Shown piece by piece: positions 15,938 through 46,543 of a stretch of 64,000 nucleotides of DNA; position 1 is the first letter of the stretch, and every line of letters starts with the position of its first letter. Origin of the DNA: a virus. The DNA lies in the IMG/VR virus record IMGVR_UViG_3300045988_081377, positions 403 to 64,402 of that record, one strand, 5' to 3'. The translations under genes and the position numbers were made by a program. The notes beneath the pieces were generated by a model that worked only from the letters and a program-made list of their open reading frames with translations, ran no database searches and had not been told where the DNA came from.

Positions 15938-18562
15938 ATGAAAGTAGCTTGGGAAAATGACGAAGTATCAATGGGTATCTTTAACGCTAAGTATTCTAAA
16001 GATAACGAAACACCGGAGCAGTTTTGTAAACGTGTCGCATCCATAGTACCCGCGGAAATTCGTTCTTCCGTTGAGAGTATGCTTGCTGACGGTACTTTTA
16101 TGTTTGGCGGACGAACGCTATACATCGCCGGACGAGACGATGGACATAGGGCGTCGTCCTCTAACTGCTATGTACTTCCGTCACCGGAAGATAACCTTGA
16201 GAGTATTTATGATATCAACAAGAAGATGGCAAGGGTATTCTCTATGGGTGGCGGTGTTGGTATTACTATTGATAAACTTAGACCAAAGGGAGCTAAGGTA
16301 CACAACGGTGCCCATACGTCCACAGGCGCCGTATCATTCTTGAATGTATTCAATACCACTGGAGAAGTGGTAGGAGCTAACGGTAGACGTGCTGCTATTA
16401 TGGTTGCCCTTGATTGTAACCATCCTGATATTGAAGAGTTCCTGCACATCAAGGAAGAAAACAATAAGCTGTCCGCTATGAATATCAGTATCAAGTTCAC
16501 GAGAAACTTCATGGAAGCGGTACAGAACAATGAAGATGTTACACTGTACTTTCTTGCTAAGGATACCGGTGAGGTTAGTACCAAAGTTATTAACGCAAAG
16601 AAATTCTGGGATGATTTCTGTAAGGTAAACTGGGACTATGGAGACCCCGGTTGTATCTTTATTGATAGGGTGCGTGACTGGAATATGCTTTCCGGTTATG
16701 ACAACTATCTAATAAACGTATCAAACCCGTGTCTTCGTGGTGATACTGAAATTCTAACCGACAAAGGCTATTACCCAATAAAGAAGTTGGCAGGTAGTAC
16801 TGTTAAGGTATGGAATGGTATGGCGTGGAGCGAGGTGACTCCGAAAGTTACAGGGGTAAACCAGCAGATGATGAGAGTAGAGTTCTCCAACGGTTCTGTC
16901 GTTGAGTGTACACCTTACCACAAATGGAAACTGGATGATGGAACGGAAGAGGGTACATTTATTCAAACGGCATTTCTAAACGTTGGTGATACCTTATATA
17001 AGTTTAAGCTACCAACAATAGTTCCGCCCAGCTTAACAAACCCCAATAACGACCCTATTACAGTAACAAGTATATCCAGCACCTCACGTGCAGACGTTGT
17101 ATATTGTCTCAACGAACCGATGTTACACACGTTTATTGCCAATGGTGTACTAACTGGGAACTGCTCGGAATTTTTTGGTAATGACTACTCTGCCTGCAAC
17201 TTGGGCAGCCTGAACCTTTATCACTTTGTAGACAATCCATTCACACCGGAAGCTACCTTTAACTTTAACAAGTTTAAGACGGCAGTTAAGGTGGCAATCA
17301 ATGCACTAAACGCCGTGCTTGATTATGGATATAACAGACAGCCCTTTGATGAGAATAGAAAATGTATTACAGACTGGAGACAGGTAGGCTTAGGCGTGTT
17401 TGGTTATGCTGATATGTTGGTAGCCATGTGTCAAAGGTACGGAAGCCGTGATGCTATTCGTTTAACTGCCGACGTGTTTAGTACCATGCAAGAAATGGCT
17501 ATTCACGAGAGTGCTATATTAGCCGCAAAAGACGGACCATTCAAACAGTACGACTATAATAAAACGGCGGCAAGTGCTATGTTCCGTTCACTTCCTGATG
17601 ACCTGCAATACGCAGTGAAACGTATGGGGTTAAGAAACGGTGCCTTGCTATCTATTGCTCCATCGGGTAGTATCTCACTCTTAGCCGGCAGGTATTCAGG
17701 CGGGTGTGAACCGTTGTATAAACTCTATTATGAACGCACATCACATAAAATGGAAGACAGCGGTAAGTCGTTTAAGATTTACTCTAAGTCCATTGAAGAC
17801 CTGCTTAAGTTTAATAACCTGCCACTTGACTTAACGACAGAAGAAATAGAAGAGAAGTTTCCGTGGGTAATTGAAAGCCAGCAGATACCGATTGCAGATA
17901 GAGTATCTACGCAGTCAGTTATGCAGATGTTTATTGACAACGCTATTAGTTCCACCGTTAATTTGCCGGAAGACGCAACACCGGAAGATATCAGTAACGT
18001 GTACATGTCAGCATATCTTAATGGTTGTAAAGGTATCACAGTGTTCAGGGACAATTGTAAGCGTGGTAATATACTCGGAGTAAAGCACGACGAACCAGCC
18101 CCTGTTATCTTGCATGACAGTATTAAACCAGAACACAGAAGCAATATAGGAGTTCTCACAGGTAAGACGTTCACCGTTAAATCAGGAGATGGTACTAACC
18201 TATACGTAACAATCAACTGGAAAGATGGAAAGATGTTTGAAGTCTTTGTGTCTACGGAACGTCACGCCCACGAGGTAGCTGGTATTACCCGCATGGTATC
18301 TCTTGCTATGAGATGCGGAGTATCTATCCAGTCTATCATTGAACAACTATTCAAACTGTCCGCAGACTCTATCGGCTTTGCCATCGGCACAGCACTCAAC
18401 GATGCCTATGCTTTTGAAGATACCGAACAACTTGTTCAGGAAGTTGAGGTTACTAAACACAAGGATGGATTTGTCTGTCCGGAATGTGGCGGTAAAGATG
18501 TCAAGCTTGTAGGTCACTGCTGGGAGTGTGCTGTATGTGGGGCAGGTGGGTGTTCCGTCTGA
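15938..18562 (+). CDS. nrdJ: Ribonucleotide reductase, class II (NrdJ)-like, interrupted by a mini-intein
   Basis: 'GGGVGITIDKLRPKGA', 'STGAVSFLNVFN', and a split active-site loop 'SNP|C...N|CSEF'. C-terminal Cys-rich tail 'CPECGGKDVKLVGHCWECAVCG' (CxxC..CxxC), as in many class II RNRs. No beta-subunit gene is present in the window. Confidence 0.75.
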   Translation: MKVAWENDEVSMGIFNAKYSKDNETPEQFCKRVASIVPAEIRSSVESMLADGTFMFGGRTLYIAGRDDGHRASSSNCYVLPSPEDNLESIYDINKKMARVFSMGGGVGITIDKLRPKGAKVHNGAHTSTGAVSFLNVFNTTGEVVGANGRRAAIMVALDCNHPDIEEFLHIKEENNKLSAMNISIKFTRNFMEAVQNNEDVTLYFLAKDTGEVSTKVINAKKFWDDFCKVNWDYGDPGCIFIDRVRDWNMLSGYDNYLINVSNPCLRGDTEILTDKGYYPIKKLAGSTVKVWNGMAWSEVTPKVTGVNQQMMRVEFSNGSVVECTPYHKWKLDDGTEEGTFIQTAFLNVGDTLYKFKLPTIVPPSLTNPNNDPITVTSISSTSRADVVYCLNEPMLHTFIANGVLTGNCSEFFGNDYSACNLGSLNLYHFVDNPFTPEATFNFNKFKTAVKVAINALNAVLDYGYNRQPFDENRKCITDWRQVGLGVFGYADMLVAMCQRYGSRDAIRLTADVFSTMQEMAIHESAILAAKDGPFKQYDYNKTAASAMFRSLPDDLQYAVKRMGLRNGALLSIAPSGSISLLAGRYSGGCEPLYKLYYERTSHKMEDSGKSFKIYSKSIEDLLKFNNLPLDLTTEEIEEKFPWVIESQQIPIADRVSTQSVMQMFIDNAISSTVNLPEDATPEDISNVYMSAYLNGCKGITVFRDNCKRGNILGVKHDEPAPVILHDSIKPEHRSNIGVLTGKTFTVKSGDGTNLYVTINWKDGKMFEVFVSTERHAHEVAGITRMVSLAMRCGVSIQSIIEQLFKLSADSIGFAIGTALNDAYAFEDTEQLVQEVEVTKHKDGFVCPECGGKDVKLVGHCWECAVCGAGGCSV
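16730..17161 (+). mobile_element. Mini-intein (144 aa, no homing-endonuclease domain) in the RNR catalytic loop
   Basis: It begins 'CLRGDTEILT' (aa 265) and ends 'FIANGVLTGN' (aa 408), followed by +1 Cys ('CSEFFG'). Removal restores 'SNPCSEF'. Confidence 0.75.
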
Positions 18563-19766: not shown

Positions 19767-20282
19767 ATGGAAAATGACTCACCATATAAACGGTACGCCA
19801 ACAAAAACTTTAACAGTTTAAAAGGCAAGCAAGTTAAAAAAGGGTACGCTTATAAGAGACCGATATCAGAAAAGGATATACAGATTGCCACAATGGTATC
19901 ACAAGGTACGCCAATAACTCAAGCCAAAGCAGCGGTAGGGTTAAAAGGAAGTGCCTTAAGTAGGAACGTCAAGGACTTAGTCAAGTTTAAACAGGAACAA
20001 ATGAGGGAAAAGTTTCTTGAGGATAGTGTAGAGATATACGAAAACCTAAAAGGCTTAGCACTCAATGCCCGTTCTGAAATGGTACGCTTTCAAGCAAGTA
20101 AAGATATCCTTGATAGGGCTGGGCTTGCACCTATCGATAAGAAAGAAATCAACGAACAGAAGTTTATTTCCACAGATAGCAAGATAACGTATGACCTGCT
20201 TAACAGGTTTAAAGCATTAGAGCTTGAAGGGGATAAGGTTAATCCTGACATCACAACGATAGATGCAGATAATGACAACTAA
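19767..20282 (+). CDS. HTH-type DNA-binding protein with terminase small-subunit-like features (tentative)
   Basis: 'QIATMVSQGTPITQAKAAVGLKGSALSRN' (HTH-like) and 'ARSEMVRFQASKDILDRAGL', reminiscent of small terminases. It is not adjacent to TerL. Confidence 0.3.
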   Translation: MENDSPYKRYANKNFNSLKGKQVKKGYAYKRPISEKDIQIATMVSQGTPITQAKAAVGLKGSALSRNVKDLVKFKQEQMREKFLEDSVEIYENLKGLALNARSEMVRFQASKDILDRAGLAPIDKKEINEQKFISTDSKITYDLLNRFKALELEGDKVNPDITTIDADNDN

Positions 20283-20310
20283 AAAAGGGACGCTTTAGGC
20301 GTCCCTTTTA
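20281..20310. terminator. Bidirectional terminator at the convergence of the + and - blocks
   Basis: 9-bp stem 'aagggacgc'/'gcgtccctt' flanked by an A-run upstream and T-run downstream. It lies between stops at 20282 (+) and 20319 (-). Confidence 0.75.
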
Positions 20311-20318
20311 AAGTGTCG

Positions 20319-21644
20319 TTATAACAATTCTGTATTAAGTTGTGTGAGGATACTGTTTAACGACTGTGTGTCTTTGGTGTGTATATAGTCATGCAGTCTA
20401 CTTATGTTATTCATAACATCTGTATCCTGCTCTCGTATTCCTGTGTCTATTATGTTGTCGGCTATCACCGCCTTTATGTCCTGTTGTTCTAATCTATACT
20501 CGTCAAAACTATTCTTTACAATCAAGAAGTAAACATCGACAAACCTATCCTGTCCTTGTCTTGCACATCTTGCTATTGCCTGCGCTAATATGCCTTTGTT
20601 CCATGGGTATTCTAAGAACACCACATCACATGAGTTAGTGAAGTTATGTCCTACACTGGCACAGTTAATGCTGCATAGTATGCCAAGTGTTATCCCTGAT
20701 TTAAATAACTGTATCTGTCTTGCTTTCTCTTTGGCTGATAAATCACCATGAACCACAGACAGGACGGGTAAAGCTTTAGCAATCGCCTCTATCAACGCCT
20801 TGTGATGGGCAAAGATAACCAACGATATACCTTGCTTAAGTCTTTCCTTTATCCAGTTAATACAGCGTTGCTGTTTAAACTGTACTATCTTCTTCTCTGT
20901 GTGTTCAATGTTACAAATATCTCTGGACACTAACGGCTGTCCCGCATATGTTCCTATGTACTCTTGATGTATAGAGTACGGATAGGCTGGCAGCCCTAAG
21001 CTGTTCCATGTTCTGCGCACAATATATTTGTTTATCCTGCGCTGTAACTCTTCCGTTCTGCTAACACTATCTAAGTACACGACACTATCTTTTGACAGTT
21101 CTCTCATGTACCTGTACTTGAAAGCTTCTTCCCCATGGAAGTCTTGCAGCTTCTTACCCACGTATAACAAACCAATTAAATCGTCCGGTCTATTAAGTAT
21201 GGGCGTACCGGTTAGCATCATAGGATTGCCTACTAAGTCTACCAGTCTGCGTGCCTCTTGTGTTCTTGCCGCGTGTATGTTCTTTAAGTTATGTGCTTCA
21301 TCAAATACTACCCCCTTATACCGTGTAACTGTTTCACCTAAATCGTCAATGAGTTTTCCAATCCTTTCATAATTTGTAATGATAACATCTTGTCCGTAAC
21401 AATCAGTCTCTATTAACTTGTGTGTCCATATTTGTAATTCGTTCTGCCAGTTATACTTAAGTGAGGCAGGACAGATAACAATGTACTTACCAGCTGTCTT
21501 CTCCATGTATTCAATAGCTTGTGCAGTCTTGCCCATGCCCATTACATCGGCTTGTATAAACACATTGTCATCCATCATACGACTTACGCCCTGTATTTGA
21601 TACCACTTAAGCCGAGACATTACAGGACTCGATAAACAATTCAT
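20319..21644 (-). CDS. SNF2-family ATPase/helicase
   Basis: 'DVMGMGKTAQAI' (motif I), 'DEAHNLKN' (II), 'LTGTPILNR' (III), 'QAIARCARQGQ' (VI). Its start overlaps the upstream gene by 38 nt. Confidence 0.85.
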   Translation of the reverse strand: MNCLSSPVMSRLKWYQIQGVSRMMDDNVFIQADVMGMGKTAQAIEYMEKTAGKYIVICPASLKYNWQNELQIWTHKLIETDCYGQDVIITNYERIGKLIDDLGETVTRYKGVVFDEAHNLKNIHAARTQEARRLVDLVGNPMMLTGTPILNRPDDLIGLLYVGKKLQDFHGEEAFKYRYMRELSKDSVVYLDSVSRTEELQRRINKYIVRRTWNSLGLPAYPYSIHQEYIGTYAGQPLVSRDICNIEHTEKKIVQFKQQRCINWIKERLKQGISLVIFAHHKALIEAIAKALPVLSVVHGDLSAKEKARQIQLFKSGITLGILCSINCASVGHNFTNSCDVVFLEYPWNKGILAQAIARCARQGQDRFVDVYFLIVKNSFDEYRLEQQDIKAVIADNIIDTGIREQDTDVMNNISRLHDYIHTKDTQSLNSILTQLNTELL

Positions 21645-23988
21645 CTGATAACAGATGTGTATATCTCTTTTCTATTGCAATGTCTTTTATCTTTTCCCAA
21701 CTCATCTCCTTGCGCGGTAACAGTGACATATCTGATAGGCAGTCCACAAATTCTACAATTGATTTAACTCTGTCGGCGTTTGTTGTGCTGGCAAAGAACC
21801 TAAACTCTACGGTGTTCCGTGGTTTTATATTAATGCCACGTGTATGGTTTCTGCGCTGTTCATATTCGTACATTAATTCTTCGTTGGATTTATCCATACG
21901 TTGACGAGTATTTTCTATATTGAAATACATCGCCGCCCACTCGTTAAACTTACCCTCTGTACGTCCTGAAAAACAAAAGATATTCTGTCTATACAAATCA
22001 GCAAACATAATTAGGTCTGCTATCTTATTTTTATCTTTCCAGAAATCCCTGCTCACATGCACGTGTATACCACTGCCGCTGGCGTCTTCGTACCCTAAGC
22101 GCTTAGCTCTATCTACCACCGTTTCCCAACCGAAATCTTTAATATGATATCCCACCGAACACGGCTCAGTTACCAATTCAAGACCACGAGTTAGTGAGCC
22201 ATCTCTCTTTGCATACAGTTCATTAAACCCATTACAGATTTTCTCTGCGTTCTCATCGGTTGTTCCGCCGTACATTAACTCCAGCTCTACACCCATGTAC
22301 TTGTGGTTATCAGTCTTACCAAAGAACGTTGGTGTCGGTTTATATCCATACTGATGTACGTGTGTACACTTTAAACTAATAACATCGTTGTACTCCGGTC
22401 TGTATCTTCCCAACTCTGCCGGTATCTTTCCTCTATGTACAAGTGATGGTTTGAAATAAATGTCTTCGCCCTCTCTGCTCTTAACTAAGATACGGTTTCT
22501 CTCGTTGTTCACAGTAAATGTTTTCATACCACAGTTATGTTTCTGTGCGTACTCTTGCGTTACTCTAACCATAGTAAACCCTTTGTCTGTATTGAGTTTA
22601 CCTTTGTGTAAACTTTTGTGTTCTATACAGCACGAACGAATGTGTGTGCTATGTGTACGACCATCCTCATCAACGTACAAGAGTGGAATATCGCGTTTGG
22701 TTTTTGGTGGAATTAGGCTGCCGCAAATAGGACAACGAACACCATCCCAAAGGTAATAGTACGCTGGGATGTTGTGTTCTCCCATGTACTTTATCACAGC
22801 GCCGCTGGTTGATGTCTTAATAATGTCACTTGCCTTTATCATTGCCAATGTTTTTTTGTCTGGTACCCAAATATTATTTTCATCGTCATGAACATGCACG
22901 TGGTACATTTCAGCAATAGTGTTTAGTGGATTTTTGTACGCCAATTCCGGTGAGTACATGGTTTTAGTTTTATTTAACCTAACAACATGTGCGCGTGGTA
23001 TATACCATCCATCACCGCCTTTCATAAAATATTTCCGTATCGTTGCTGGAGTAGTTCTTATGTACCTATACTTCTTATGGTCTTTCACCTTATAAAGTTT
23101 CAGTATACCCGGCGACATAACGCAACCGTTTACCGAGTCGTAACATTGAGCGGCAATTTTTACGAACGGATTACCGGTACAATTCATATAACGGATAAAA
23201 CTATCAACGCCAGTATCTATACTGTGCCTACCGTTCATGGTTGGAGCGTTGTTTTCCCTTCTGAATTTTGGATAATAAGAACTACCAATTCTACACCTAC
23301 CGTCGAACGACTCTCTTATGTACCATTGTAATAACGGTCTATTACTGGCGTGAGTTGAACGTACTACACCAGTAGGCAATCCTAAGTTGCCAATAAATAA
23401 AGTGTTGACGTCTGGTAATTCTCTTAACAACTTAACGTCAGGACGTACCACAACATAATGTAACTTATCAACTCCATACCAAAAACAATCTCCCAATGGT
23501 TGTCTTCTTGCCGTGGTCTGTCTTGAGTATAAACACGGAGTATCCTCAGGGACTTCCGCAGCGGGCGACTTAACAAGGCGGCAGTTACGTACCGTGTATA
23601 TGTTGTTGTTATACTTAAGTACATATCTCATGTCCGGAAGTATAGCCACCTGACTATCATGAACATCTTTCCACGTACCAATCTTAAACATGTAATCTTG
23701 GTTCATCCATCTTTTTATTTCAAGTGTACGTGATAACAGTTCCATCCTCTGATGTGGGTCATCAGGCAGCACTATACCAAAGCTACTACCTTTATCGTAA
23801 CCGGCATACATATAGTATAACCTAAGCTCCATATTACTTATGTTTCTCGATACGTATATTATAAAACCACTGTCACTCGACTGTAATCTTTTAATCGTTG
23901 GAGTAAAACTTAATTCAAATTTTCCTACAACCGCACCACTTAACTGTTGTATGTATTCCTGTTCTGTTGCTGGTGTTATCTCACTCAT
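21607..23988 (-). CDS. Large protein: unknown ~545-aa N-terminal region (Zn-ribbon) + C-terminal amidoligase (GS/GCS2-like, Pfam Amidoligase_2-type) domain, paralog B
   Basis: C-terminus has 'YMGVELELMYGG', 'DGSLTRGLELVTEPCS', 'SGIHVHVS' and 'TVEFRFFASTT'. 'CPICG....CCIEH' lies near aa 419-457. Homologous along its whole length to 23985..26267. Confidence 0.6.
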   Translation of the reverse strand: MSEITPATEQEYIQQLSGAVVGKFELSFTPTIKRLQSSDSGFIIYVSRNISNMELRLYYMYAGYDKGSSFGIVLPDDPHQRMELLSRTLEIKRWMNQDYMFKIGTWKDVHDSQVAILPDMRYVLKYNNNIYTVRNCRLVKSPAAEVPEDTPCLYSRQTTARRQPLGDCFWYGVDKLHYVVVRPDVKLLRELPDVNTLFIGNLGLPTGVVRSTHASNRPLLQWYIRESFDGRCRIGSSYYPKFRRENNAPTMNGRHSIDTGVDSFIRYMNCTGNPFVKIAAQCYDSVNGCVMSPGILKLYKVKDHKKYRYIRTTPATIRKYFMKGGDGWYIPRAHVVRLNKTKTMYSPELAYKNPLNTIAEMYHVHVHDDENNIWVPDKKTLAMIKASDIIKTSTSGAVIKYMGEHNIPAYYYLWDGVRCPICGSLIPPKTKRDIPLLYVDEDGRTHSTHIRSCCIEHKSLHKGKLNTDKGFTMVRVTQEYAQKHNCGMKTFTVNNERNRILVKSREGEDIYFKPSLVHRGKIPAELGRYRPEYNDVISLKCTHVHQYGYKPTPTFFGKTDNHKYMGVELELMYGGTTDENAEKICNGFNELYAKRDGSLTRGLELVTEPCSVGYHIKDFGWETVVDRAKRLGYEDASGSGIHVHVSRDFWKDKNKIADLIMFADLYRQNIFCFSGRTEGKFNEWAAMYFNIENTRQRMDKSNEELMYEYEQRRNHTRGINIKPRNTVEFRFFASTTNADRVKSIVEFVDCLSDMSLLPRKEMSWEKIKDIAIEKRYTHLLSDELFIESCNVSA

Positions 23989-26267
23989 AACTGTGTCTCC
24001 TCTCTTGTAAATGTAGTGTCATCAAGTAATTCCGTGTAGCCCTTTCGTTCCGCAATATCAAACAACTTATTCCAGTAAATATCCTTAGGCGGTAGTAACG
24101 ATAGGTCCGTTAAGCAATCGGTAAACTGCAAGATGGAATGTAGCCGCTTAATATCTAACGTGCTGGCAAACAATCTAATCTCTACTGTGTCAGCCGGCTT
24201 GAGATTTACAGCGTAATGATGCTGGCTGCTGTTGTTGTACTTATTGTACATTGACTTGTAATTACTTACACAATCGCTAAGCGGTACTATAAATCCATAT
24301 GGTTTCGCCCACCTATTAAACTCATCTTTACCTCTGCGAGCATAAATTCTTAACCTCTCTCTGTACCTATCGGTAAACCAGCACAGCTTTACTATCCCTG
24401 ATGTTATGTACTTACCCCAAAACTTCTTGCTTACGTGTACGTGGATACCACTGCCTTGTCTTGCCGTGTACCCCAATGCATTAGCGGTGTTCAAAACATA
24501 TTCCCACTTGAGGTTAGACAGGTGGTAGTCTAACGAGCATGGCTCTGTAATTAACTCAAAACCCTCGTCAAGTGACGAGTCTGTCTTGCAATACATTTCA
24601 GGAACCAGCTTACAGATTTTAGTTGCGCTACTATTGCTAACGCCACCATCCATAAGCTCAAGCTCAACGCCCATAAACTTATGGTTAGATGTCTGACCAA
24701 AGAACATTGGACGTGGCTTAAACCAATAGTTTTGAATAGATGTACACAACTTGTACGCCGTACCATCAGACTGGAAGTATATATCTGCACGAGGGGTACC
24801 ATCTACACCACATAAACTTTGTTTCAGCACACGTCGTATGACGTCGTTTCTCTCATGCACTATTGTTATGTTATCGGACGGAGTAAGGACTGTATCAGGT
24901 AAACGAAAGTGGTCTTTGAAATAATCAGCAACAACATCTACCGCACGTAACTCGATTGTAAGATATGTTTTATCATCAAGTTCAAGGATGGGCATGTTGT
25001 GCAGGCACTCTTTACATACCTTGTATATCTTAATTGTATGCTCCCATGGAACAACGATTGTTTGATACCCCACCGAAACTTGTATCTGCCCACAGTTATC
25101 ACAAGGGTTTGAGTTCCACAAAGGTGAGAAGTACACCCCGTCTGGTTTCATTGGTACAGTATCAGGCAACCATGTGAGAGTTTCCTTGTCACGATAATAC
25201 CCTGAGGTTTCTGTGATAGGCGTATCATTATTTATAATGAAGTCCCACCTCTCGGCTAAGTCCTCATTGTATTCGAACGTTGACGGACCGGTTCGTACAA
25301 CAAACAGACGCGGATAATATTTATCACCAATCTTGATAAAATGTTTGTTAAAGTTTTCCTCTGTTGTGTGTATAACCCTCTGGTCATAAGGCTGTACGTC
25401 TACTCTATGCATACTTAACGTACACTCTGTCGGTACGTTATCTACGATATCGTAATTACATAAGTGAGTACCCCTTACATACTGTTTAGTGTCGTTACCC
25501 AATAAAGTATTGGACAAAGCATTTCTGCGCCTATAATCCGACCCCTCGATAGGATAATATTCATACTCACCATCGGTAGACAATATGCTATCCCTATTGA
25601 TTACCTGTATCATTGACTGATAACCGTCATCAATCACATCCTGCACGTACATTATGTCGTTGTCTGTACCCTCTCTTTGTGGTATAAACATGACACCCAA
25701 CTGTACATATGTGTTCCACAAAAACAGTTTGTTTACTTTACCTAACGCACGGAATAGTTCCTGGTCGGATGGTACTAATGTTTGATGTCCATTAAATATA
25801 CCGCCGTAATATATACCGCTGTTTAATTCGACGGAATTTCTTTCTGTGTTACATGCCCGTGTCCACACCACCTTGTCATAAGGCTTTGGTTCATACACAC
25901 GCAGGTACTGCGAACTCTCAATGTAATAAGCCATGCCATTGTACTTCAAACAGTATTCAAACTTACCGTTAAAGAATATAGAGTTATTCTCCACATCCTT
26001 AAACTCACTAATCATCCAGTGGTGTATGTCACCTAACCATGCGTCCTTATGTAACCTATGTTTCAAAAACAACTCCATAAAATCAAGTGAGTTAATGTTA
26101 CATTCAAACCATGACGTAATGTCGTGGTGAAAGTAATGGTTGATGTTCCTTATTGGTTTGTGTACCATCAACATCTTACCATCACATATACGGAAAGCAA
26201 CGTAATTACTATCGCCTAAGTGTTCACGCTTTAACCTTTCCACCTCACACAGTTCCATATTTCTCAC
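23985..26267 (-). CDS. Large protein: unknown ~520-aa N-terminal region (Zn-ribbon) + C-terminal amidoligase domain, paralog A
   Basis: C-terminus has 'FMGVELELMDGG', 'DSSLDEGFELITEPCS', 'SGIHVHVS' and 'TVEIRLFASTL'. 'CDNCG...CKECLH' is at aa 389-423 (nt ~25005-25103). It makes 4-nt overlaps with both neighbours. Confidence 0.6.
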   Translation of the reverse strand: MRNMELCEVERLKREHLGDSNYVAFRICDGKMLMVHKPIRNINHYFHHDITSWFECNINSLDFMELFLKHRLHKDAWLGDIHHWMISEFKDVENNSIFFNGKFEYCLKYNGMAYYIESSQYLRVYEPKPYDKVVWTRACNTERNSVELNSGIYYGGIFNGHQTLVPSDQELFRALGKVNKLFLWNTYVQLGVMFIPQREGTDNDIMYVQDVIDDGYQSMIQVINRDSILSTDGEYEYYPIEGSDYRRRNALSNTLLGNDTKQYVRGTHLCNYDIVDNVPTECTLSMHRVDVQPYDQRVIHTTEENFNKHFIKIGDKYYPRLFVVRTGPSTFEYNEDLAERWDFIINNDTPITETSGYYRDKETLTWLPDTVPMKPDGVYFSPLWNSNPCDNCGQIQVSVGYQTIVVPWEHTIKIYKVCKECLHNMPILELDDKTYLTIELRAVDVVADYFKDHFRLPDTVLTPSDNITIVHERNDVIRRVLKQSLCGVDGTPRADIYFQSDGTAYKLCTSIQNYWFKPRPMFFGQTSNHKFMGVELELMDGGVSNSSATKICKLVPEMYCKTDSSLDEGFELITEPCSLDYHLSNLKWEYVLNTANALGYTARQGSGIHVHVSKKFWGKYITSGIVKLCWFTDRYRERLRIYARRGKDEFNRWAKPYGFIVPLSDCVSNYKSMYNKYNNSSQHHYAVNLKPADTVEIRLFASTLDIKRLHSILQFTDCLTDLSLLPPKDIYWNKLFDIAERKGYTELLDDTTFTREETQL

Positions 26268-27337
26268 CTCACCTTCGGCAATACTTTAATCTTAGGTTTC
26301 TTAGCTGCGCCCTGTTTAATTACTTTAATCTTACCAGTTAATTTTCTCTGCGCATACGTATCATAGAAATCATATTCCGATGCCTTGTCAAAGTGATACA
26401 TCTTAAACAAATCCTCATCTATCTCTGCACGTACAAGGAAAATTATTTTATCGTACACACGGATGGACGACACAGTCATGTCGTAATCATTAAGCATGCC
26501 CTCAAGCAATACCTTAATGTCATCCTTATCATATGTCTGCACATCCTCTTTTAGTACGAATTTAATCTCAAGCCTTACCGGTAATAGCGGAGACTTTACG
26601 TTACTTACACTTGCCTGAGTTAAAGCTGGAGTTGTTTTGCTCGCAACTGGCTGTGTAGTAGACATACAGGTGGCACCACATGTATCACCGTACTGACTGC
26701 TGTACCCATAGTAACCATAGCTGCCATAATTATACCCACCGTATCTGCTGTACTGTTGTTTCTTGTACGATGAATTGCTGTACGTTGCCTTGCTTGTCAG
26801 GCTCTGTTCAAAGTTACCTATCGTACTCACGTTATCCTTGTTCATCACTGCAAGTTTAGAGTAACCAATGTGTGAGCTTAACAGTTCCTCAATGAGCGAG
26901 TCGTGCAAGTCAAGTCCACGTACTAACAACTCATTTAACATCCGCTTACCAAACGCCATACTGTCTGAATAGTTAGCAGTCAATCCACCTTGTGGGTTAT
27001 AACTATGCAGTACACCATTATGAGCGAACGCCCACGTTGCAGTGGTGTCAAGTAATCTCATCTCCTCGTACTTAGGCGACACGGGAAATGGATGGCAACA
27101 TTCAGGTGAAACCTTACCGGCTGTAGCAATGCGACAATGGATAACCCTGTCACAATCTACAGGTAATGTTTTCAAAAACTCAACAAACTTTTCTTTCTCC
27201 ATGAAACCTTTGCGGACATGTACCGTGTGTCCATCATTCCACATAACACCGGCGCCATCTTTATTCCGCGTAAAACAATTGTCCATCTCGTCATAGTTAA
27301 ACGGGATGTTCTTTCTATACACACCAATCACACACAT
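26264..27337 (-). CDS. Class-II (Ntn) glutamine amidotransferase-like / YafJ-type thiol enzyme with Tyr/Gly/Ser linker and unknown C-terminal domain
   Basis: It starts 'MCVIG' (Cys2 nucleophile position). 'HCRIATAG', 'CHPF' and 'WAFAHNGVL' parallel YafJ/GAT-II motifs. aa ~186-217 read 'SSYKKQQYSRYGGYNYGSYGYYGYSSQYG'. Confidence 0.6.
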   Translation of the reverse strand: MCVIGVYRKNIPFNYDEMDNCFTRNKDGAGVMWNDGHTVHVRKGFMEKEKFVEFLKTLPVDCDRVIHCRIATAGKVSPECCHPFPVSPKYEEMRLLDTTATWAFAHNGVLHSYNPQGGLTANYSDSMAFGKRMLNELLVRGLDLHDSLIEELLSSHIGYSKLAVMNKDNVSTIGNFEQSLTSKATYSNSSYKKQQYSRYGGYNYGSYGYYGYSSQYGDTCGATCMSTTQPVASKTTPALTQASVSNVKSPLLPVRLEIKFVLKEDVQTYDKDDIKVLLEGMLNDYDMTVSSIRVYDKIIFLVRAEIDEDLFKMYHFDKASEYDFYDTYAQRKLTGKIKVIKQGAAKKPKIKVLPKVR

Positions 27338-27340
27338 AAA

Positions 27341-27796
27341 TTATTCCTCACTTTCTTGAATACTTTTTATTGAATTAAACTTCTGAATGATTTTACCCAT
27401 GTTATTCTCTGCCTGCTCTCGTGTAGCAAAACAGTTTCCAATAAGTTTATTGGCAGCACATATAGTATTTCTCCAGTAATAACTCCCGCTTACTACGTTT
27501 CCATACGGCGTAACGAAATAGTATATCTGCATTTCTTTAGGGTTAAACTCATGAACTATAAATGTATAATCATCCATGTGTTGTACATAATTCATCAGGT
27601 CATATGACTTATCCCATTTACCATCTCGCCTTTCCTGCAATTCGCCATCAACAAACTTGTACCTACGCTTTGTCCTTATAGTCTGCCACGGCATAAGACA
27701 TTTACGTTCCGCGTCAAACTCTACCCCCTCTCCTGCTCCAATCTCAGCCATAAACACCTTGGTTATCTTGCGTATAAAATCATTCATTCGTGTCAC
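27341..27796 (-). CDS. Hypothetical protein (operon member)
   Basis: 151-aa ORF abutting its neighbours. No motif recognised. Confidence 0.5.
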   Translation of the reverse strand: MTRMNDFIRKITKVFMAEIGAGEGVEFDAERKCLMPWQTIRTKRRYKFVDGELQERRDGKWDKSYDLMNYVQHMDDYTFIVHEFNPKEMQIYYFVTPYGNVVSGSYYWRNTICAANKLIGNCFATREQAENNMGKIIQKFNSIKSIQESEE

Positions 27797-28255
27797 CTAC
27801 TCTCTCGCAAACCTACAATTAACAAGAGTAATTTCACCGTTAATCGTAACGTTTGAGTCGTAGACGGTCACATTAATAAGGCGCAATCCTTTGCCCTCTA
27901 CGTTAGCATAAGTAAGTTCTGAGTTGCCCCCTATATAAGTGCCGCTTACGTGTACCTCGTCGAGGTTACTCTTATCGCATATACATGAGTTACCCTCAAC
28001 AAAAGAATATGACAATAACGCATCATCTTTTACGGTAGAACCAACCATCACATGTGAATATTTGTCCACCCAACACCTACCGTCTTGAGATAGGCAGCTT
28101 TCATCTTGGATAAATCCACCTAATGTACCGGCTTTTATTGTCTCTCCCTCAATCGTCTTGAATGTTTTAACTGCTTTGACCTGATGGTATACGTTACCAT
28201 TATATACTTCTTCTTGTTCCATTAAAACATATTTCTTTTCGCTCACTCGTATCAT
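27797..28255 (-). CDS. Beta-helix-repeat protein (paralog of 28395..29024)
   Basis: 'YHQVKAVKTFKTIEGETIKAGTLGGFIQDESCLSQDGRCWVDKYSHV' followed by short repeats (V.G....G.S). This is the common phage 'Y.I.A...F..V..G.LGG.I..E.NLS..G..WV' family pattern. Confidence 0.5.
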   Translation of the reverse strand: MIRVSEKKYVLMEQEEVYNGNVYHQVKAVKTFKTIEGETIKAGTLGGFIQDESCLSQDGRCWVDKYSHVMVGSTVKDDALLSYSFVEGNSCICDKSNLDEVHVSGTYIGGNSELTYANVEGKGLRLINVTVYDSNVTINGEITLVNCRFARE

Positions 28256-28380
28256 CCTTTCACTATACGTACAACAAAATCAAACACAACCTGAACAATA
28301 GCGAACAACACAGCTACCGCAAGGATAGCCATAGGTGCAAGGACAATACCAGCACCAATGAAACTCATAACATTATCCAT
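28252..28380 (-). CDS. Tiny single-TM protein (42 aa, below the track cutoff)
   Basis: The reverse strand reads 'GGTGGTGAGGAT ATG' and then MDNVMSFIGAGIVLAPMAILAVAVLFAIVQVVFDFVVRIVKG. Its TGA overlaps the ATG of the next gene (ATGA). Confidence 0.45.
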   Translation of the reverse strand: MDNVMSFIGAGIVLAPMAILAVAVLFAIVQVVFDFVVRIVKG

Positions 28381-28394
28381 ATCCTCACCACCTT

Positions 28395-29024
28395 TCACGC
28401 ATCAAACTTTTCTTTTGTAAACTCTCGTGATAAAGCAACAACACTATCCCAAAGTTTTTCGGGAATAATCTTGTTTTCTCGAACTCTCTTATCTACTTCC
28501 TCAAACGGTACCACGTCACTACGTACACCATACGCCGCATAACACGCCAACAATTCACCCTCAATAGATGGATAAATAGCCACGTCAAGCATTAACCAAT
28601 GTCCAAGTGTGACAAAGAAAAACTGTGAGGCATCGGTAATTTTTGCCTTATTAAATTCGCACGATAAGAGTAGGTGAAATCTACCCCGTACGTCTATAAT
28701 AGAGTCAACAATATTACCTTGACCATAGAAGTGTACACCACGCACACGAGAATTTCCTTTAACGTGGTATCCCTCAATGTGGGCATGAATAAGTGCCGAC
28801 GAGTCGCAAACAGAACCATCAGCGTTGCCGCCCACCCATGACTTATCGTATTGACTAAGTATCTCTGGGTCACTCACAAAACCGCCCATTTGACCATACA
28901 ACACGGTATTACCGTCAATCGTGTAAAACTGTTTAAGAGACTGTATCCGATAAACAGTAGCCCCGTTAATGGTTTTAGTGTGGTCTGTGAGCTTGAATTT
29001 TGCACATTCAGGCACATTAAACAC
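28395..29024 (-). CDS. Beta-helix-repeat protein (paralog of 27797..28255)
   Basis: 'YRIQSLKQFYTIDGNTVLYGQMGGFVSDPEILSQYDKSWVGGNA'. GTG start at 29024, or more likely 29015 given the 'AAAGGGG' spacing. Confidence 0.5.
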   Translation of the reverse strand: MFNVPECAKFKLTDHTKTINGATVYRIQSLKQFYTIDGNTVLYGQMGGFVSDPEILSQYDKSWVGGNADGSVCDSSALIHAHIEGYHVKGNSRVRGVHFYGQGNIVDSIIDVRGRFHLLLSCEFNKAKITDASQFFFVTLGHWLMLDVAIYPSIEGELLACYAAYGVRSDVVPFEEVDKRVRENKIIPEKLWDSVVALSREFTKEKFDA

Positions 29025-29129
29025 CCCTTTCTATTAAATTATATCACGTGAATTACGTGTGGTAAAGGACTGTTAAGGTACAGTCCTTATGAAACCTGAT
29101 GAGTGATGTTGGATATGTCCCTACGGCTG

Positions 29130-32232: not shown

Positions 32233-32951
32233 TGTGTACCCCCTTTCTGCCTGATTACAGGCAATACAAATACTTCTAATTTTACCGCAAGGTATCTGTA
32301 CTTAGTTATTTTTTTATTCTTTTCCCTCTACTATCTATATACAAACATCTGTTCTACCAAACATACGTACGGGTGGGGCTTGGCTAATGGGTATGGTGTA
32401 TCTCAAAAGGGGGTACGAGGGTATCTGTTATTAAAAATATATAATGTTCCTGTATATGAATTAAATGTTTGTTTAATAGAGATTGTCAACCTTATAAATC
32501 AGAAAGTATTCAATACGTAAAAGCATACACACTAATCATAAAAGGATATACTCTTACATTGGTAATGGTAGTATTGGTATTAATGGTATAGGATAAGTTG
32601 AATATTAAGGGTAGGGCTAATAATTTTCTTTTTCCGCCGCGAAGGATGCTTTACCCACCCCGTATTTAATAATATTTTAATACTTTTATAGGAGTTGATT
32701 TAAGGGCTTTGAAGAAGGTCAAAGGTCTTCTGGTATTCAGAAGTTGCTGGACCCCTCTTAAAAACGATTTTAGACCACTTCTTGACGATTTTAAGAGAAG
32801 GGATTGAATGGGGTGGGGCTTGTTTTAGTGGTAGTGGCAACAAATATAATTTGTTGTCCTCAATAAGATGCTTTTAGCATCTTATAGTGGTTGTTATAGA
32901 TAGTATTTTATCTTGGTTATAGAAAAGTTCTATTACAAAATGGGGGTGGTT

Positions 32952-32983
32952 TTCAGTATATTATAGAGGGGTATTAAAATCCT
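32952..32983 (+). promoter_or_regulatory. Copy 1 of the conserved 'TTCAGTATA(T/A)TATAGAGGGGTATTAAAATCCT' box
   Basis: 32 nt, differing at one position from copy 2 at 33084-33115. Confidence 0.6.
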
Positions 32984-32996
32984 TCTGATTATACAC

Positions 32997-33025
32997 TTGA
33001 CATTTTATTATCTTTGGTGTATAAT
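32997..33025 (+). promoter_or_regulatory. Consensus sigma70-type promoter (TTGACA-17-TATAAT) firing into ORF-free sequence
   Basis: TTGACA at 32997-33002, a 17-nt spacer, TATAAT at 33020-33025. Confidence 0.65.
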
Positions 33026-33083
33026 AGTGACAGCTATGAAAAAGTAGCTTCAATACTATGTTTTTGAGAGGTTCTTAACCCTT

Positions 33084-33115
33084 TTCAGTATATAATAGAG
33101 GGGTATTAAAATCCT
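33084..33115 (+). promoter_or_regulatory. Copy 2 of the conserved box
   Basis: 'ttcagtatataatagaggggtattaaaatcct'. Confidence 0.6.
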
Positions 33116-33779
33116 CACCGGTGTTTTCCTTAGTTAGACCGGTCTATCAACTCAAACATAAACGGCGTTATAGAGAGTTGCGTTTATTCTCTATGATGAC
33201 TTCGGAGTTTTACAAGTTGTTCAAGTTCACTTAGTTGTAGGTGGCTCAGTCGTTAAACATCAATAAGCACCTGTCCAACAAAAAGACTGTTCGTTTTCTT
33301 TGTTTCTATTAACAATATATTCCCAGAGATGGGGCGGTCCCTGCTGTAAAGGCGCGCAGGACAGGGCAACCGGTAATTATGACAGTCGTACCCTTGAGAT
33401 ACTAAACGTACTCTTGGCTATACCTTGAAGGTAATTCTACCTTTCTTGAAAAACCAGTGTTTGTGCCGGAAGGGCTGGGTTTAAAAGAAAGTGGAAGCTG
33501 GGTGGAGTGTTTTGGGGGGTTTGGGGGGTCTATTCTTTCCGACCGGCACTTGGAACTGAATACTCTTTATCTCTTTTAGTTACTTAACTGTTTAAAGAAC
33601 ACTTAGTAGTACTCTTTAAATACAGTTGTTGTTAATAGAAAGAATAGAGAGAAAGAAAAGCCATGCAGAATAACCACGGTTATCTACCCTCTTTTCTTTA
33701 AGCTTACACCCTTAACAGTATATTTATCTTTAACTTTATCTTTTTAGAGACAGTTTATTAATACTTTATAGTTATTTAC

Positions 33780-33808
33780 TTGACAGAACATTTTTTATGT
33801 GATATAAT
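33780..33808 (+). promoter_or_regulatory. Perfect-consensus sigma70-type promoter with extended -10 (TTGACA-17-TGaTATAAT)
   Basis: TTGACA at 33780-33785 and TATAAT at 33803-33808, preceded by 'TGa'. AT-rich UP-like sequence lies upstream. Confidence 0.75.
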
Positions 33809-33836
33809 ACAGTCAAGACAGAAAGGAGTGTATATC

Positions 33837-34001
33837 TTGGATATTTATGTACCCGGATTTAATCCCGAAGTAGAAAAAGAAGCTGTTGAAGCTATGACCC
33901 CGTTATTTGCAGAGGCAGATAAGGAAGAAGTTACAGAAGAATTAGAAGAGAATGTGGAAGTAGAAAGCAAACCTAAACGTAAAACAAAGACAAAAGAATA
34001 A
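33837..34001 (+). CDS. Small, very acidic protein with a basic C-terminal tail (54 aa, TTG start)
   Basis: RBS 'AAAGGAG' lies 8 nt before TTG at 33837. Sequence: 'LDIYVPGFNPEVEKEAVEAMTPLFAEADKEEVTEELEENVEVESKPKRKTKTKE'. The 5' part of track ORF 33780.. is the promoter itself. Confidence 0.5.
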   Translation: MDIYVPGFNPEVEKEAVEAMTPLFAEADKEEVTEELEENVEVESKPKRKTKTKE

Positions 34002-34109
34002 TCTTTCCTGATTAATCATACAATAAGCACAGTATAGCTGGGCATCTGCTGTGTTACCCGTCTCGAACCTGCAACAGAGACACCGCCCACCATGGGCTGT
34101 AAGCCTAAA

Positions 34110-34199
34110 GAAAAGCCATGTCCATAGCCATGCGGATACACCCGCGTTCCTGTGATGCTTGCATCAGTTGTTGGGAACAGGTTTCCTGCATGGCTTTTC
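34110..34199 (+). terminator. Large structured element / candidate terminator-attenuator
   Basis: 11-bp closing stem 'gaaaagccatg' (34110-34120) / 'catggcttttc' (34189-34199). Inner hairpin 'tgatgc..gcatca' at 34153-34166. A duplicated 'gccatg' offers alternative pairing. T-rich sequence follows the stem. Confidence 0.35.
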
Positions 34200-34229
34200 T
34201 ATTGCTTATTTTACGTGTTTTAAGGTATG

Positions 34230-34314
34230 TTCAGTATATAATAATAACGTCAAGGACGTTAAGATTATACACTTCAAGAGATTTTCAATCTCTTTCAGTA
34301 TATAATAGGAGAAG
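34230..34314 (+). promoter_or_regulatory. Twin-TATATAAT element X immediately upstream of the late (grx-terL) operon; contains box copies 3 and 4
   Basis: Box 34235-34242. Hairpin 'taacgtc aag gacgtta' at 34245-34261. Core 'agattatacact' at 34262-34273. Hairpin 'aagagatt ttc aatctctt' at 34276-34294. Box 'ttcagtatataataggagaag' at 34294-34314. Confidence 0.55.
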
Positions 34315-34353
34315 TTTTATTCTGATTTGTTGTCTTTATAAAGGGGTGGGGTA

Positions 34354-34581
34354 ATGGCTCTTATGATTTCAGGTCCTGTATGCGGGTATTGCCGCCGTAT
34401 AAGACCTTTATATGATAAGGTTTGTGCTGATTTGGGTATAGAACCTCGTCATATTATGTATTCTGATTATGATGGTGAGGTGGAAAGTGTCCCTTGCCTG
34501 ATTAATAAAGAAGGAAAGAAGATGTACGGGGGTAATCATAACTACGATGAGCTTAAACAGTTCTTTATCGGAGATAAATAA
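34354..34581 (+). CDS. Glutaredoxin/NrdH-like small redox protein
   Basis: 75 aa with 'CGYC' (CxxC) near the N-terminus, plus 'VPCL' and 'GG..' in thioredoxin-fold order. RBS 'AAAGGGGTGGGG'. Confidence 0.55.
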   Translation: MALMISGPVCGYCRRIRPLYDKVCADLGIEPRHIMYSDYDGEVESVPCLINKEGKKMYGGNHNYDELKQFFIGDK

Positions 34582-45604: not shown

Positions 45605-46543
45605 TTGTTTCAAAATAATATATCAAGAGCACGCAATTACATATCTCCAAATACACTATGTGACGTTTCGTGCGTGTCTCCATGGCTACCTGCGGGATGG
45701 AGTGTGCTTTTAACCAATAGTGGTATGCAAGCTATTTCGTTTCTTATGATGTATTACATGCATCAAGGTTACACTCCCTATTGCCACAATACGGCGTTTA
45801 TAGAAACGAGGCATTTATGCAATGATACTCATGTTATAGATATAATAAGCGACAGTATCCCAGATAAAAGTATTGTGTTTATAGATAATCCTGATTATCT
45901 TGGGTGTTATTTTGACTTAAGTAAATTGTCCATTAAAGTGCATGATGCTAAGTCTATTCTGGTTGTTGATAATACTCGCGTGTCTATATACGGAGATACT
46001 TCATTCAATTATGGCGTTGATTACGTAGTGGAAAGTTATTCTAAGTATGGGGTCGGCAATGGACAAACTCCACTTGGCGGGATATATTTTCGTGCCAATT
46101 CTGTTGAAGAACATCAAAGAATAATTTTATTCGCGGCGGCGTTTGGCGTCTCTGTTATGGAGTCGCAGTGTAAAATTTTATCAGCTGGACTATCCTCGCT
46201 TCGGGCAAGGATGGAGCGGGTAATATGGACGTCGAAACAATTAGACGCAGCTTTGCATGATGCTAATATCCCACATATGTACATCTACGGTTCTGGTATT
46301 TTTAATTTACCATATGATTACCTATATACCATACAAAACGGTAAATACTGGGAAGAGATGAGTGCCTATGGATTTCCTGTATCTACGTATTGTACATGCA
46401 CAGACCACATTCATTTTAACAACCAACATAATGATAGATATTTGAGATTATCGGTTGGGTTAGAAGATACAGACAATTTAGTTGCGGATACTATTGCCGC
46501 ATTAACTAATAAAATTAATTCGCAAAGGTACGACATTAAATGA
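45605..46543 (+). CDS. Cys/Met-metabolism PLP-dependent enzyme homolog (CGS/CBL/MGL family), N-terminally short
   Basis: 'NSGMQAIS', 'LVVDNT', 'GVDYVVESYSKYGVGNGQTPLGG' (Lys in the Schiff-base position), 'LSSLRARMER', 'YLRLSVGLEDTDNLVADTIAAL'. TTG start; the first in-frame ATG is already inside the domain. Confidence 0.65.
   Translation: MFQNNISRARNYISPNTLCDVSCVSPWLPAGWSVLLTNSGMQAISFLMMYYMHQGYTPYCHNTAFIETRHLCNDTHVIDIISDSIPDKSIVFIDNPDYLGCYFDLSKLSIKVHDAKSILVVDNTRVSIYGDTSFNYGVDYVVESYSKYGVGNGQTPLGGIYFRANSVEEHQRIILFAAAFGVSVMESQCKILSAGLSSLRARMERVIWTSKQLDAALHDANIPHMYIYGSGIFNLPYDYLYTIQNGKYWEEMSAYGFPVSTYCTCTDHIHFNNQHNDRYLRLSVGLEDTDNLVADTIAALTNKINSQRYDIK

Follow-up and report, generated by a model that had tools for sequence, protein, structure and literature searches.

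A candidate amide-ligation operon with duplicated giant amidoligases in an uncultured phage

We analyzed 64,000 nucleotides (nt) of viral DNA, positions 403 to 64,402 of the IMG/VR record IMGVR_UViG_3300045988_081377 (hereafter the window, numbered 1-64000), which is essentially the whole genome of an uncultured phage of ~64 kilobases (kb). A minus-strand operon in it encodes 2 giant proteins ending in an Amidoligase_2 domain, a class-II glutamine amidotransferase (GAT)-like protein, and a SNF2-family ATPase. With middling confidence, we read it as an early, host-directed amide-ligation operon, an enlarged and duplicated form of a known phage module, whose target would be a macromolecule and probably not the phage DNA. 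This reading is carried by the ligases and the GAT, which keep their catalytic residues, are translationally coupled, and recur together on many phage backbones.

The giant paralogs are encoded next to each other on the minus strand, paralog A at 23985-26267 (760 amino acids, aa) and paralog B at 21607-23988 (793 aa), and are paralogous along nearly their full length (BLASTP 1e-78, 30% identity). Both passed the Pfam cut-off of 22 bits for Amidoligase_2 (PF12224), with 25.4 bits (1.6e-5) for paralog A and 32.2 bits (1.3e-7) for paralog B in matches that span profile positions 67-242 of 245 only, which bears out the family proposed in an earlier note on this DNA. They also matched phrog_16683 (1.3e-33 and 3.1e-29, respectively), and a match to phrog_2443, "amidoligase," was obtained at 1.2e-7. 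The Amidoligase_2 domain covers residues ~508-760 of paralog A (nt 23988-24746) and 541-793 of paralog B (nt 21610-22368), and a Zn-ribbon precedes it, with CDNC at 389-392 and CKEC at 418-421 in paralog A (nt 25005-25103) and CPIC at 419-422 followed by CCIEH at 453-457 in paralog B (nt 22618-22734). Translation of paralog A more likely starts at the ATG at 26258, giving 757 aa, because a GGTGAGG Shine-Dalgarno sequence precedes this codon and the ortholog on contig L001 is called with 757 aa from the corresponding Met.

The motifs GVELELM, D(G/S)SL, EPCS, SGIHVHVS, and TVE(F/I)R(F/L)FAST were all present in both giants, in the order quoted in the earlier note. Residues E568, E570, D596, S598, H642, H644, R676, E728, and R730 were invariant in both paralogs, in relatives of ~830 aa, and in 29 diverse family members, and E604 was invariant in both paralogs and the ~830-aa relatives and kept in at least 90% of the 29 diverse members. 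By analogy, these GxExE, DxS, E, HxH, R, and ExR residues correspond to the expected ATP/metal site, and since they are invariant in both copies, both ligases look catalytically competent. The AlphaFold2 model of the full-length 793-aa protein had a mean pLDDT of 46.9, with residues 203-567 below 50 and the ligase domain at 60-94; general homolog searches with the 793-aa protein, an alignment, and the relative P0010 recovered near-identical sequences only, which left a shallow alignment for structure prediction. Foldseek with the ligase domain of paralog B placed YbdK (1r8g; E 2e-3, prob 1.00) at the top, then 1tt4, followed by Dop, PafA, and GmaS, at weak E-values, and as modeled the domain has the glutamine synthetase (GS)/GCS2/PafA-type carboxylate-amine ligase fold. 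Searches of PDB sequences and profiles with the full-length family yielded zero matches, and the ligases and the GAT were unmatched among the PADLOC defense models. Matches of the domain-family profile to C2H2/LIM zinc fingers were rejected as compositional, arising through repeated CxxC and not through homology.

The lineage-specific part of the giant ligases is the ~400-aa N-terminal region ahead of the Zn-ribbon. Its conservation among orthologs (88-94%) equals that of the ligase domain, and because it is conserved as strongly, it is taken to be functional. A separate model of residues 70-215 (pLDDT 65, one of five models) returned Foldseek matches no better than E=0.18 (prob 0.23). The N-terminal halves of the 2 paralogs are oppositely charged, with a net charge of +17 (isoelectric point, pI, 9.4) in the 793-aa protein and of -15 (pI 5.4) in the 760-aa protein, and the regions are acidic in the 760-aa paralog and in relatives (pI 5.0-5.8). 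A general nucleic-acid-binding signature is lacking, since the region is basic in the 793-aa protein and acidic in the 760-aa protein and relatives; the opposite charges would fit a heteromer of the 2 paralogs.

The GAT-like protein (minus strand, 26264-27337; 357 aa) matched GATase_4 at 2.6e-7, with 30.3 bits against a cut-off of 23 over residues 23-116 only, and purF TIGR01134 at 1.3e-3 over residues 3-112, and among PDB sequences the YafJ-like 1te5 is closest (E=0.021). Its conserved catalytic core comprises residues 1-195 (26753-27337); downstream of it, a linker rich in Tyr, Gly, and Ser leads to a C-terminal domain, and both of these parts are variable. We identified the N-terminal MC together with HCRIATAG, CHPF, and FAHNG, and these motifs and matches agree with the earlier assignment to class-II, N-terminal nucleophile (Ntn), YafJ-like enzymes. 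Across 15 of 15 GAT homologs from many phage backbones, C2, N25, G28, G30, H67, R69, H82, P83, N107, G108, and D125 were invariant, including the glutamine-site pattern of C2 after the initiator Met, R69 (HxRxAT), the N107-G108 oxyanion element (HNG), and D125 (SDT/SDS).

These genes belong to a block of 8 tightly packed minus-strand open reading frames (ORFs), recovered at the coordinates reported earlier, that runs from a promoter-like site (29066-29038) down to a terminator (20309-20283). Orthologs with 84-98% identity occur on several contigs of ~59-66 kb, so the ORFs are real genes and not chance ones. The start and stop codons overlap as ATGA at 28252-28255, between a 42-aa ORF and the next gene, and at 23985-23988, between the 2 ligases, whereas the junction of the GAT with paralog A (26264-26267), previously listed as a third ATGA, is GTGA. 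The SNF2 ORF overlaps the upstream amidoligase gene by 38 nt (21607-21644), as had been seen before, and the other intergenic gaps are 0-14 nt. The promoter-like site (minus strand, 29038-29066) is sigma-70-like, a consensus match only (10/12), with TTTACC, a 17-nt spacer, and TG-TATAAT including an extended -10, and it lies directly upstream of the first ORF, a 209-aa gene. The strong bidirectional intrinsic terminator, given before as 20281-20310, was confirmed at 20283-20309, with an 11-bp stem containing 6 GC pairs, a 5-nt loop, and flanking A- and T-runs, and separates the convergent operon from the replication module.

We scanned viral and metagenome contigs around amidoligase anchors with a custom ORF and hidden Markov model pipeline and found amidoligase and GAT genes adjacent on ~15 backbones unrelated to the window phage, often with overlapping stop and start codons. 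None of these loci had an adjacent same-strand SNF2 gene; a single one (L017) had a SNF2-like gene at all, 2.4 kb away and on the opposite strand. The amidoligase-GAT pair is an invariant core across many backbones and, because it occurs on these without an adjacent same-strand SNF2 gene, is regarded as the universal functional core; the constant pairing and translational coupling further argue for a stoichiometric two-enzyme unit, in which the ligases and the GAT would form a complex. In GenBank, Marvin gp105/gp106, a Manatee Spring podovirus, and phages of OM43 fit the pair pattern. Marvin gp105 was considered as a GAT-amidoligase fusion and rejected, gp105 and gp106 being an adjacent pair.

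The neighborhood of Amidoligase_2 and GAT genes in phages was reportedly predicted computationally by Iyer et al. in 2009. LUZ24-like phages carry the pair in the early region (PMC3890496), OM43 phages carry it with an undefined product (PMC10580990), and the neighborhood has been predicted without a defined product (PMC10580990, PMC3890496, PMC8989533), in line with what the earlier note had stated. We also located the pair in an early region at locus L019, and in the experimental host adaptation of a Pseudomonas phage by directed evolution, parallel missense mutations arose in both genes of the pair (PMC11450229). Together, the placement in early or nonstructural regions and the parallel mutations support a role in host interaction. 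For the window, early expression is suggested by the minus-strand block, the sigma-70-like promoters, and the position between the replication and structural modules.

Compared with the known module of LUZ24/PaP3/tf/UFV-P2, phiEco32, Marvin (gp105/gp106), and the OM43 phages MEP401/402, the window has the same 2 families, adjacent, often coupled, in an early or nonstructural region, and likewise with intact catalytic residues (PMC3890496; PMC10580990). It differs in the size of its ligases (760-793 aa), whose ~400-aa N-terminal region is matched only in the phage's own group and in the ~830-aa relatives, in the tandem duplication of the giant ligase, in the absence of the ATP-grasp and COOH-NH2_lig partners, and in that the module is core and SNF2-adjacent throughout the family. 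An exhaustive HMMER search identified 6,644 cluster representatives at E <= 1e-3, and among the best 150 of these, all except the window's 2 paralogs matched in the C-terminal ligase domain only, a few reaching the Zn-ribbon/linker. A few relatives of ~800-840 aa (P0007-P0012) share the overall architecture, with N-terminal regions that align weakly. One or several CxxC...CxxC units precede the ligase domain in many family members, and by its sequence the Zn-ribbon is a family-wide trait; the N-terminal modules vary across the superfamily and carry repeated Zn-ribbons, as would fit adaptor or targeting domains. Of the features that the earlier note had presented as new, the fusion of the ligase to an uncharacterized region with a Zn-ribbon stands for the ~400-aa region but not for the Zn-ribbon, and the ligase duplication stands as a tandem duplication of the giant form, whereas at least 2 ligases per system recur elsewhere (L035, L039, L080/81, and the L004 group), at L035 and L039 on other backbones. 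A sister lineage has as its second ligase a canonical Amidoligase_2 protein of small size, ~300-340 aa, whose strongly acidic tail ends ...DDDDYDDDRDEDW (L004, 6140-7138; L010, 5596-6564; L033, 2175-3200), and the occurrence of this protein alongside a giant suggests that 2 ligases per system are maintained by nonorthologous means.

The last gene of the operon (minus strand, 20319-21644) encodes a minimal SNF2-family ATPase of 441 aa, and both SNF2-rel_dom (PF00176, the SNF2 N-lobe; 4.8e-22) and Helicase_C (PF00271; 1.7e-12) confirmed the earlier call, along with phrog_62 (1.8e-66). Its ATPase motifs are complete (GMGKT36, DEAH115, TGTP145, QAIARCARQGQ355), and its start may be the ATG at 21620 (433 aa, 14-nt overlap), as suggested by orthologs of the L004 group, which align from about residue 10-12. 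PADLOC returned generic SNF2-core matches only (DpdE, ZorD, DrmD), all far from full length. Minimal SNF2 "DNA helicases" of phrog_62, ~390-540 aa with the SNF2 N-lobe and Helicase_C only and all ATPase motifs, are common across unrelated phages, in replication or early regions; those of the window family differ from the others in being always immediately downstream of an amidoligase-GAT module.

In a SNF2-anchored scan, we separated loci with at least 30% identity to the window SNF2 (33) from more distant ones (46). All 33 of the former belong to the backbone family of the window phage, and in 33/33 amidoligase and GAT genes lie immediately upstream of SNF2, in five arrangements: GAT-amidoligase-amidoligase-SNF2; small amidoligase-GAT-giant amidoligase-SNF2; amidoligase-GAT-SNF2, with the GAT stop overlapping or at most 4 nt from the SNF2 start; amidoligase-GAT-gap-SNF2; and amidoligase-amidoligase-GAT-2 kb-SNF2. 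None of the 46 more distant loci had an amidoligase or GAT within 9 kb. SNF2 is also much more conserved than the ligases (1e-120 versus 1e-60). The association is thus fixed within a single phage family. We read SNF2 as a core gene of that family at the distal end of the operon transcript, probably a replication/recombination-type helicase and not an obligate partner of the ligases. The coupling to SNF2, which had been put forward as a novelty, holds as family-wide synteny (33/33), whereas outside the family the link disappears.

All characterized enzymes with this ligase fold (GS, GCS2, GmaS, PafA) use ATP to activate a glutamate-type carboxylate, which is then coupled to an amine. Class-II Ntn amidotransferases hydrolyze a gamma-amide, either that of glutamine itself or that of a gamma-glutamyl compound. 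As an early-transcribed accessory operon of the uncultured ~64-kb phage, the block would supply giants that activate a carboxylate as an acyl-phosphate with ATP and then join it to an amine, and a co-translated Cys-Ntn GAT that would hydrolyze a gamma-glutamyl amide. The GAT may act in either of 2 directions. Under the first option, it would hydrolyze glutamine and pass ammonia to the ligases for net amidation of the carboxylate, following the logic of MurT/GatD or of asparagine synthetase B (AsnB), which uses a class-II Ntn GAT domain. Both of these systems couple an ATP-dependent ligase to an ammonia-supplying glutaminase (for MurT/GatD, PMC3267633), but their ligase folds differ from that of the window proteins (a Mur ligase and an AMP-forming PP-loop enzyme), and GatD is a class-I GAT.

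Under the second option, the ligases would form a gamma-glutamyl adduct that the GAT then trims, on the model of EgtA/EgtC, PuuA/PuuD, or PafA/Dop. PafA/Dop and YbdK/GCS2 are the best structural neighbors of the ligase domain and would share with it, by analogy, the ATP-dependent acyl-phosphate activation of a glutamate-type carboxylate, and PafA/Dop also share the logic of a ligase with an amidase. Sequence similarity of these proteins to the window ligases is undetectable, a Pup-like tag gene was not found in the window system, and the partner amidase has a Cys-Ntn GAT-II fold, whereas that of PafA is its paralog Dop. In our preferred reading, the N-terminal region and Zn-ribbon of each ligase would act as targeting modules, and the substrate would be a macromolecule of the host or the phage, either a protein or a precursor of the envelope, whose modification early in infection would serve takeover or counter-defense. 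A macromolecular target is favored over a free metabolite because the N-terminal modules are large, conserved, and variable between lineages.

Several points weigh against this reading. Members of the module are without a defined substrate or product, so we infer every chemical step. The contiguity of amidoligase, GAT, and SNF2 in 33/33 loci, with the gene before SNF2 overlapping it or within ~4 nt in three of the arrangements, could reflect a functional link between SNF2 and the ligases. The basic N-terminal half of the 793-aa paralog is compatible with nucleic-acid binding, and with the N-terminal region modeled so poorly by AlphaFold, a fold already known to bind DNA or RNA could have escaped notice.

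Rather unlikely, in our estimate, is the alternative of small-molecule or precursor chemistry, in which the ligases and the GAT would build up or break down a gamma-glutamyl-polyamine, a short nonribosomal peptide, or an amidated peptidoglycan precursor and so alter host metabolism or the envelope, for example for superinfection exclusion, as once proposed for phiEco32. All characterized fold relatives use glutamate-type carboxylates, and the substrates of most are small molecules; YbdK/GCS2 and GmaS came up in the structure search, and GS is a further such relative. The pairing of a GS-like ligase with an amidohydrolase in PuuA/PuuD (polyamine) and EgtA/EgtC (ergothioneine) counts for this alternative as well. 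Lipid II is amidated by MurT/GatD (PMC3267633), a cell-wall idea has been cited (PMC10580990), and the multi-ligase sets of LUZ24-like phages (Amidoligase_2, COOH-NH2_lig, ATP-grasp, and GAT) resemble stepwise peptide assembly (PMC3890496). However, enzymes of free metabolites would not be expected to carry N-terminal modules that are large and conserved, yet highly variable, and equipped with Zn-ribbons, and the pair is unaccompanied by a transporter or other biosynthetic genes.

The remaining alternatives give SNF2 a part in the chemistry. In one that we regard as improbable, the module was recruited together with SNF2 to a chromatin-like substrate, and a heteromer of the basic 793-aa and acidic 760-aa proteins, targeted by Zn-ribbons, would act by amidation or gamma-glutamylation on host proteins bound to DNA or on a DNA or RNA base, with SNF2 giving access. 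If true, this would represent a new class of system for amide ligation directed by nucleic acids. Very doubtful is the related proposal that nucleoid proteins, RNA polymerase, or defense proteins bound to DNA are tagged or amidated while SNF2 delivers or remodels the targets. The contiguous trio in its five arrangements and the close spacing before SNF2 in three of them speak for it, as do the fold relationship to PafA/Dop and the presence of Zn-ribbon adaptor modules. Against it, the linkage is limited to one backbone, where conserved synteny can explain it, SNF2 is conserved far above the ligases, as for an independent core gene, GAT and SNF2 lie ~100 nt to 2 kb apart in two sublineages, and no small tag protein ending in a conserved Glu/Gln was found beside the systems.

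Hypermodification of DNA bases by the operon is likewise unlikely, and we would give very little weight to a version in which the ligases form amides on a carboxyl-bearing base, the amine being an amino acid or ammonia derived from glutamine, and SNF2 provides DNA tracking or access, an analogue of CmoY and 5-carboxymethylcytosine. ATP-dependent amide ligation on a base is experimentally established for the CmoA/CmoX/CmoY system of Synechococcus phage S-B43, and some CmoY homologs are fused to a glutamine-hydrolyzing domain (PMC12783734); on some viral contigs, genes for an amidoligase and a glutaminotransferase are found together with those for thymidine hypermodification (PMC8989533). The family-wide SNF2 synteny, the basic N-terminus of the 793-aa paralog, and a pyridoxal phosphate (PLP)-dependent enzyme elsewhere in the genome also fit. 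CmoY, however, is an AsnB homolog from a different, AMP-forming ligase superfamily and not a GS-like amidoligase, and CmoA and CmoX, which are required there, were undetected in the window.

More broadly, the Pfam and PHROG scans, covering all window ORFs of at least 250 aa and many smaller ones, identified no dUMP/dCMP hydroxymethylase, C5-methyltransferase/CmoX, CmoA, TET/JBP, 5-HMUDK, or aGPT-Pplase, although ORFs of 977, 524, 379, 310, 276, and 258 aa were unmatched and a very divergent enzyme could hide there. Neither a thymidine hypermodification cluster of the 5-HMUDK/aGPT-Pplase type (PMC8989533) was found in the window nor, with zero methyltransferase or AsnB-type matches in the scanned ORFs, a CmoA/CmoX/CmoY system (PMC12783734). 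The window DNA also avoids restriction sites to an extreme degree, which sets it apart from the S-B43-type system: its 64 kb contain 0 GATC, 0 CTAG, 1 GGCC, and 0 CTGCAG, against ~212, 117, 122, and 20 expected per strand, and GATC is the most under-represented 4-mer (z=-26) and CTGCAG the most under-represented 6-mer. Such avoidance points to strong selective pressure from type II restriction systems of the host, and the loss of the sites implies DNA that is visible to restriction enzymes. GTTAAC and GAATTC each occur at 1 site in the window.

It is this site loss and the undetected handle-installing enzyme that make hypermodification unlikely; the acidic N-terminal regions of the 760-aa paralog and of relatives and the other-backbone pairs without SNF2 stand against it as well. 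The earlier note had favored a nucleic-acid-directed activity, and this is not supported, as the SNF2 link is bound to one family, handle enzymes were not detected, sites are purged, and the N-termini are not consistently basic; taken in total, such activity lies between very doubtful and rather unlikely. A Pup- or RimK-like tag was rejected, since the 151-aa protein of the operon ends in QESEE but a conserved acidic-ended small ORF was not found next to the pair in other lineages, as a PafA/Dop/Pup-like system would have it.

The 4 genes upstream of the GAT are variable passengers outside the conserved core. They encode, all on the minus strand, a YdcK-like 209-aa protein (28395-29024; phrog_5070, 5.6e-14; YdcK_fam, 0.024, 13.5 bits), a hydrophobic 42-aa ORF with a single transmembrane segment (28252-28380; 93% identical to its L001 ortholog and also present in L002 and L003), a YdcK-like 152-aa protein (27797-28255; phrog_5070, 1.2e-18; NCBIfam YdcK_fam, 1.9e-13, 50 bits), and a 151-aa protein without an assigned function (27341-27796; phrog_35336, 4.5e-5; 94% identical to its L001 ortholog). 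The 152-aa and 209-aa proteins are paralogous (BLASTP 3e-17) and by sequence resemble YdcK without being equivalogs, as both stay far below the 350-bit cut-off of NF040481 and match in the N-terminal ~120 residues only. The 209-aa gene is 65% identical at its N-terminus to a 300-aa gene and 91% identical at its C-terminus to a 301-aa gene of L001, and from this comparison is a recombinant of two ~300-aa paralogs, both of which occur in L001 (3276-5095) and L002. YdcK-like genes are absent from L003 and have extra copies in L001 and L002, the pattern of a rapidly changing paralog array, and the beta-helix (YdcK-like) pair that had been counted as part of the system does not belong to it on this evidence. 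The 151-aa gene also has extra paralogs in L001 and L002 and was not found in L004-type or more distant relatives.

The replication module of the phage is on the plus strand and includes PolA, Erf, a primase-helicase, exonucleases, RusA, and an intein-containing ribonucleotide reductase (RNR); the minus-strand block that holds the operon (20.3-32.2 kb) lies between it and the plus-strand structural module of TerL, portal, scaffold, major capsid protein, and tail fibers. At the DNA level, none of the GenBank phages is close to the window. In the scan of genome contigs, the sole match was a 70-kb phage-like relative binned with a Lachnospiraceae metagenome-assembled genome, which hints only weakly at the host; human-gut-type assemblies are the source of other relatives, and the phage family (~60-72 kb) is widespread.

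Several other features of the genome were recorded. The RNR (plus strand, 15938-18562) has 874 aa, a size intermediate between orthologs of 733 aa without an insert and of 1044-1053 aa with Intein_splicing and a LAGLIDADG homing endonuclease, and so seems to hold a mini-intein at about residues 275-415 (CLRGDTEIL...VLTGN/C). The replication module is headed by a 977-aa ORF (plus strand, 21-2954) that had zero matches in Pfam, PHROGs, PADLOC, and PDB sequences. The region 32233-34546 (2.3 kb, GC 0.36) lacks any ORF of at least 90 aa, contains several hairpins and two perfect sigma-70 consensus promoters on the plus strand (32997-33025 and 33780-33808), and is probably an early control region or origin between divergent blocks. 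In the tail module, a 312-aa protein (plus strand, 45605-46543) matched the PLP-dependent Cys_Met_Meta_PP family (E=1.2e-18, profile 69-259 of 381); its gene lies between that of a 591-aa tail protein and small ORFs, an odd site for a metabolic enzyme. A 485-aa collagen-like repeat tail-fiber protein (plus strand, 47368-48825) matched dozens of PHROG tail-fiber families.

The pair of Amidoligase_2 and GAT-II genes, already known as a computationally defined and biochemically uncharacterized phage module, is a long-standing puzzle of therapeutic Pseudomonas phages, mycobacteriophages, and marine and gut phages. What is new here is the ~400-aa N-terminal region of the giant ligases, their tandem duplication, and the family-wide synteny with SNF2. 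These findings do not by themselves reveal a new mechanism, but they narrow the hypotheses toward a macromolecular, non-DNA target, for which LUZ24-like phages and Marvin, carrying the same core, are tractable models. In the gut-type phage family of ~60-72 kb to which the window belongs, the pair is a core feature of every member and not a sporadic accessory.

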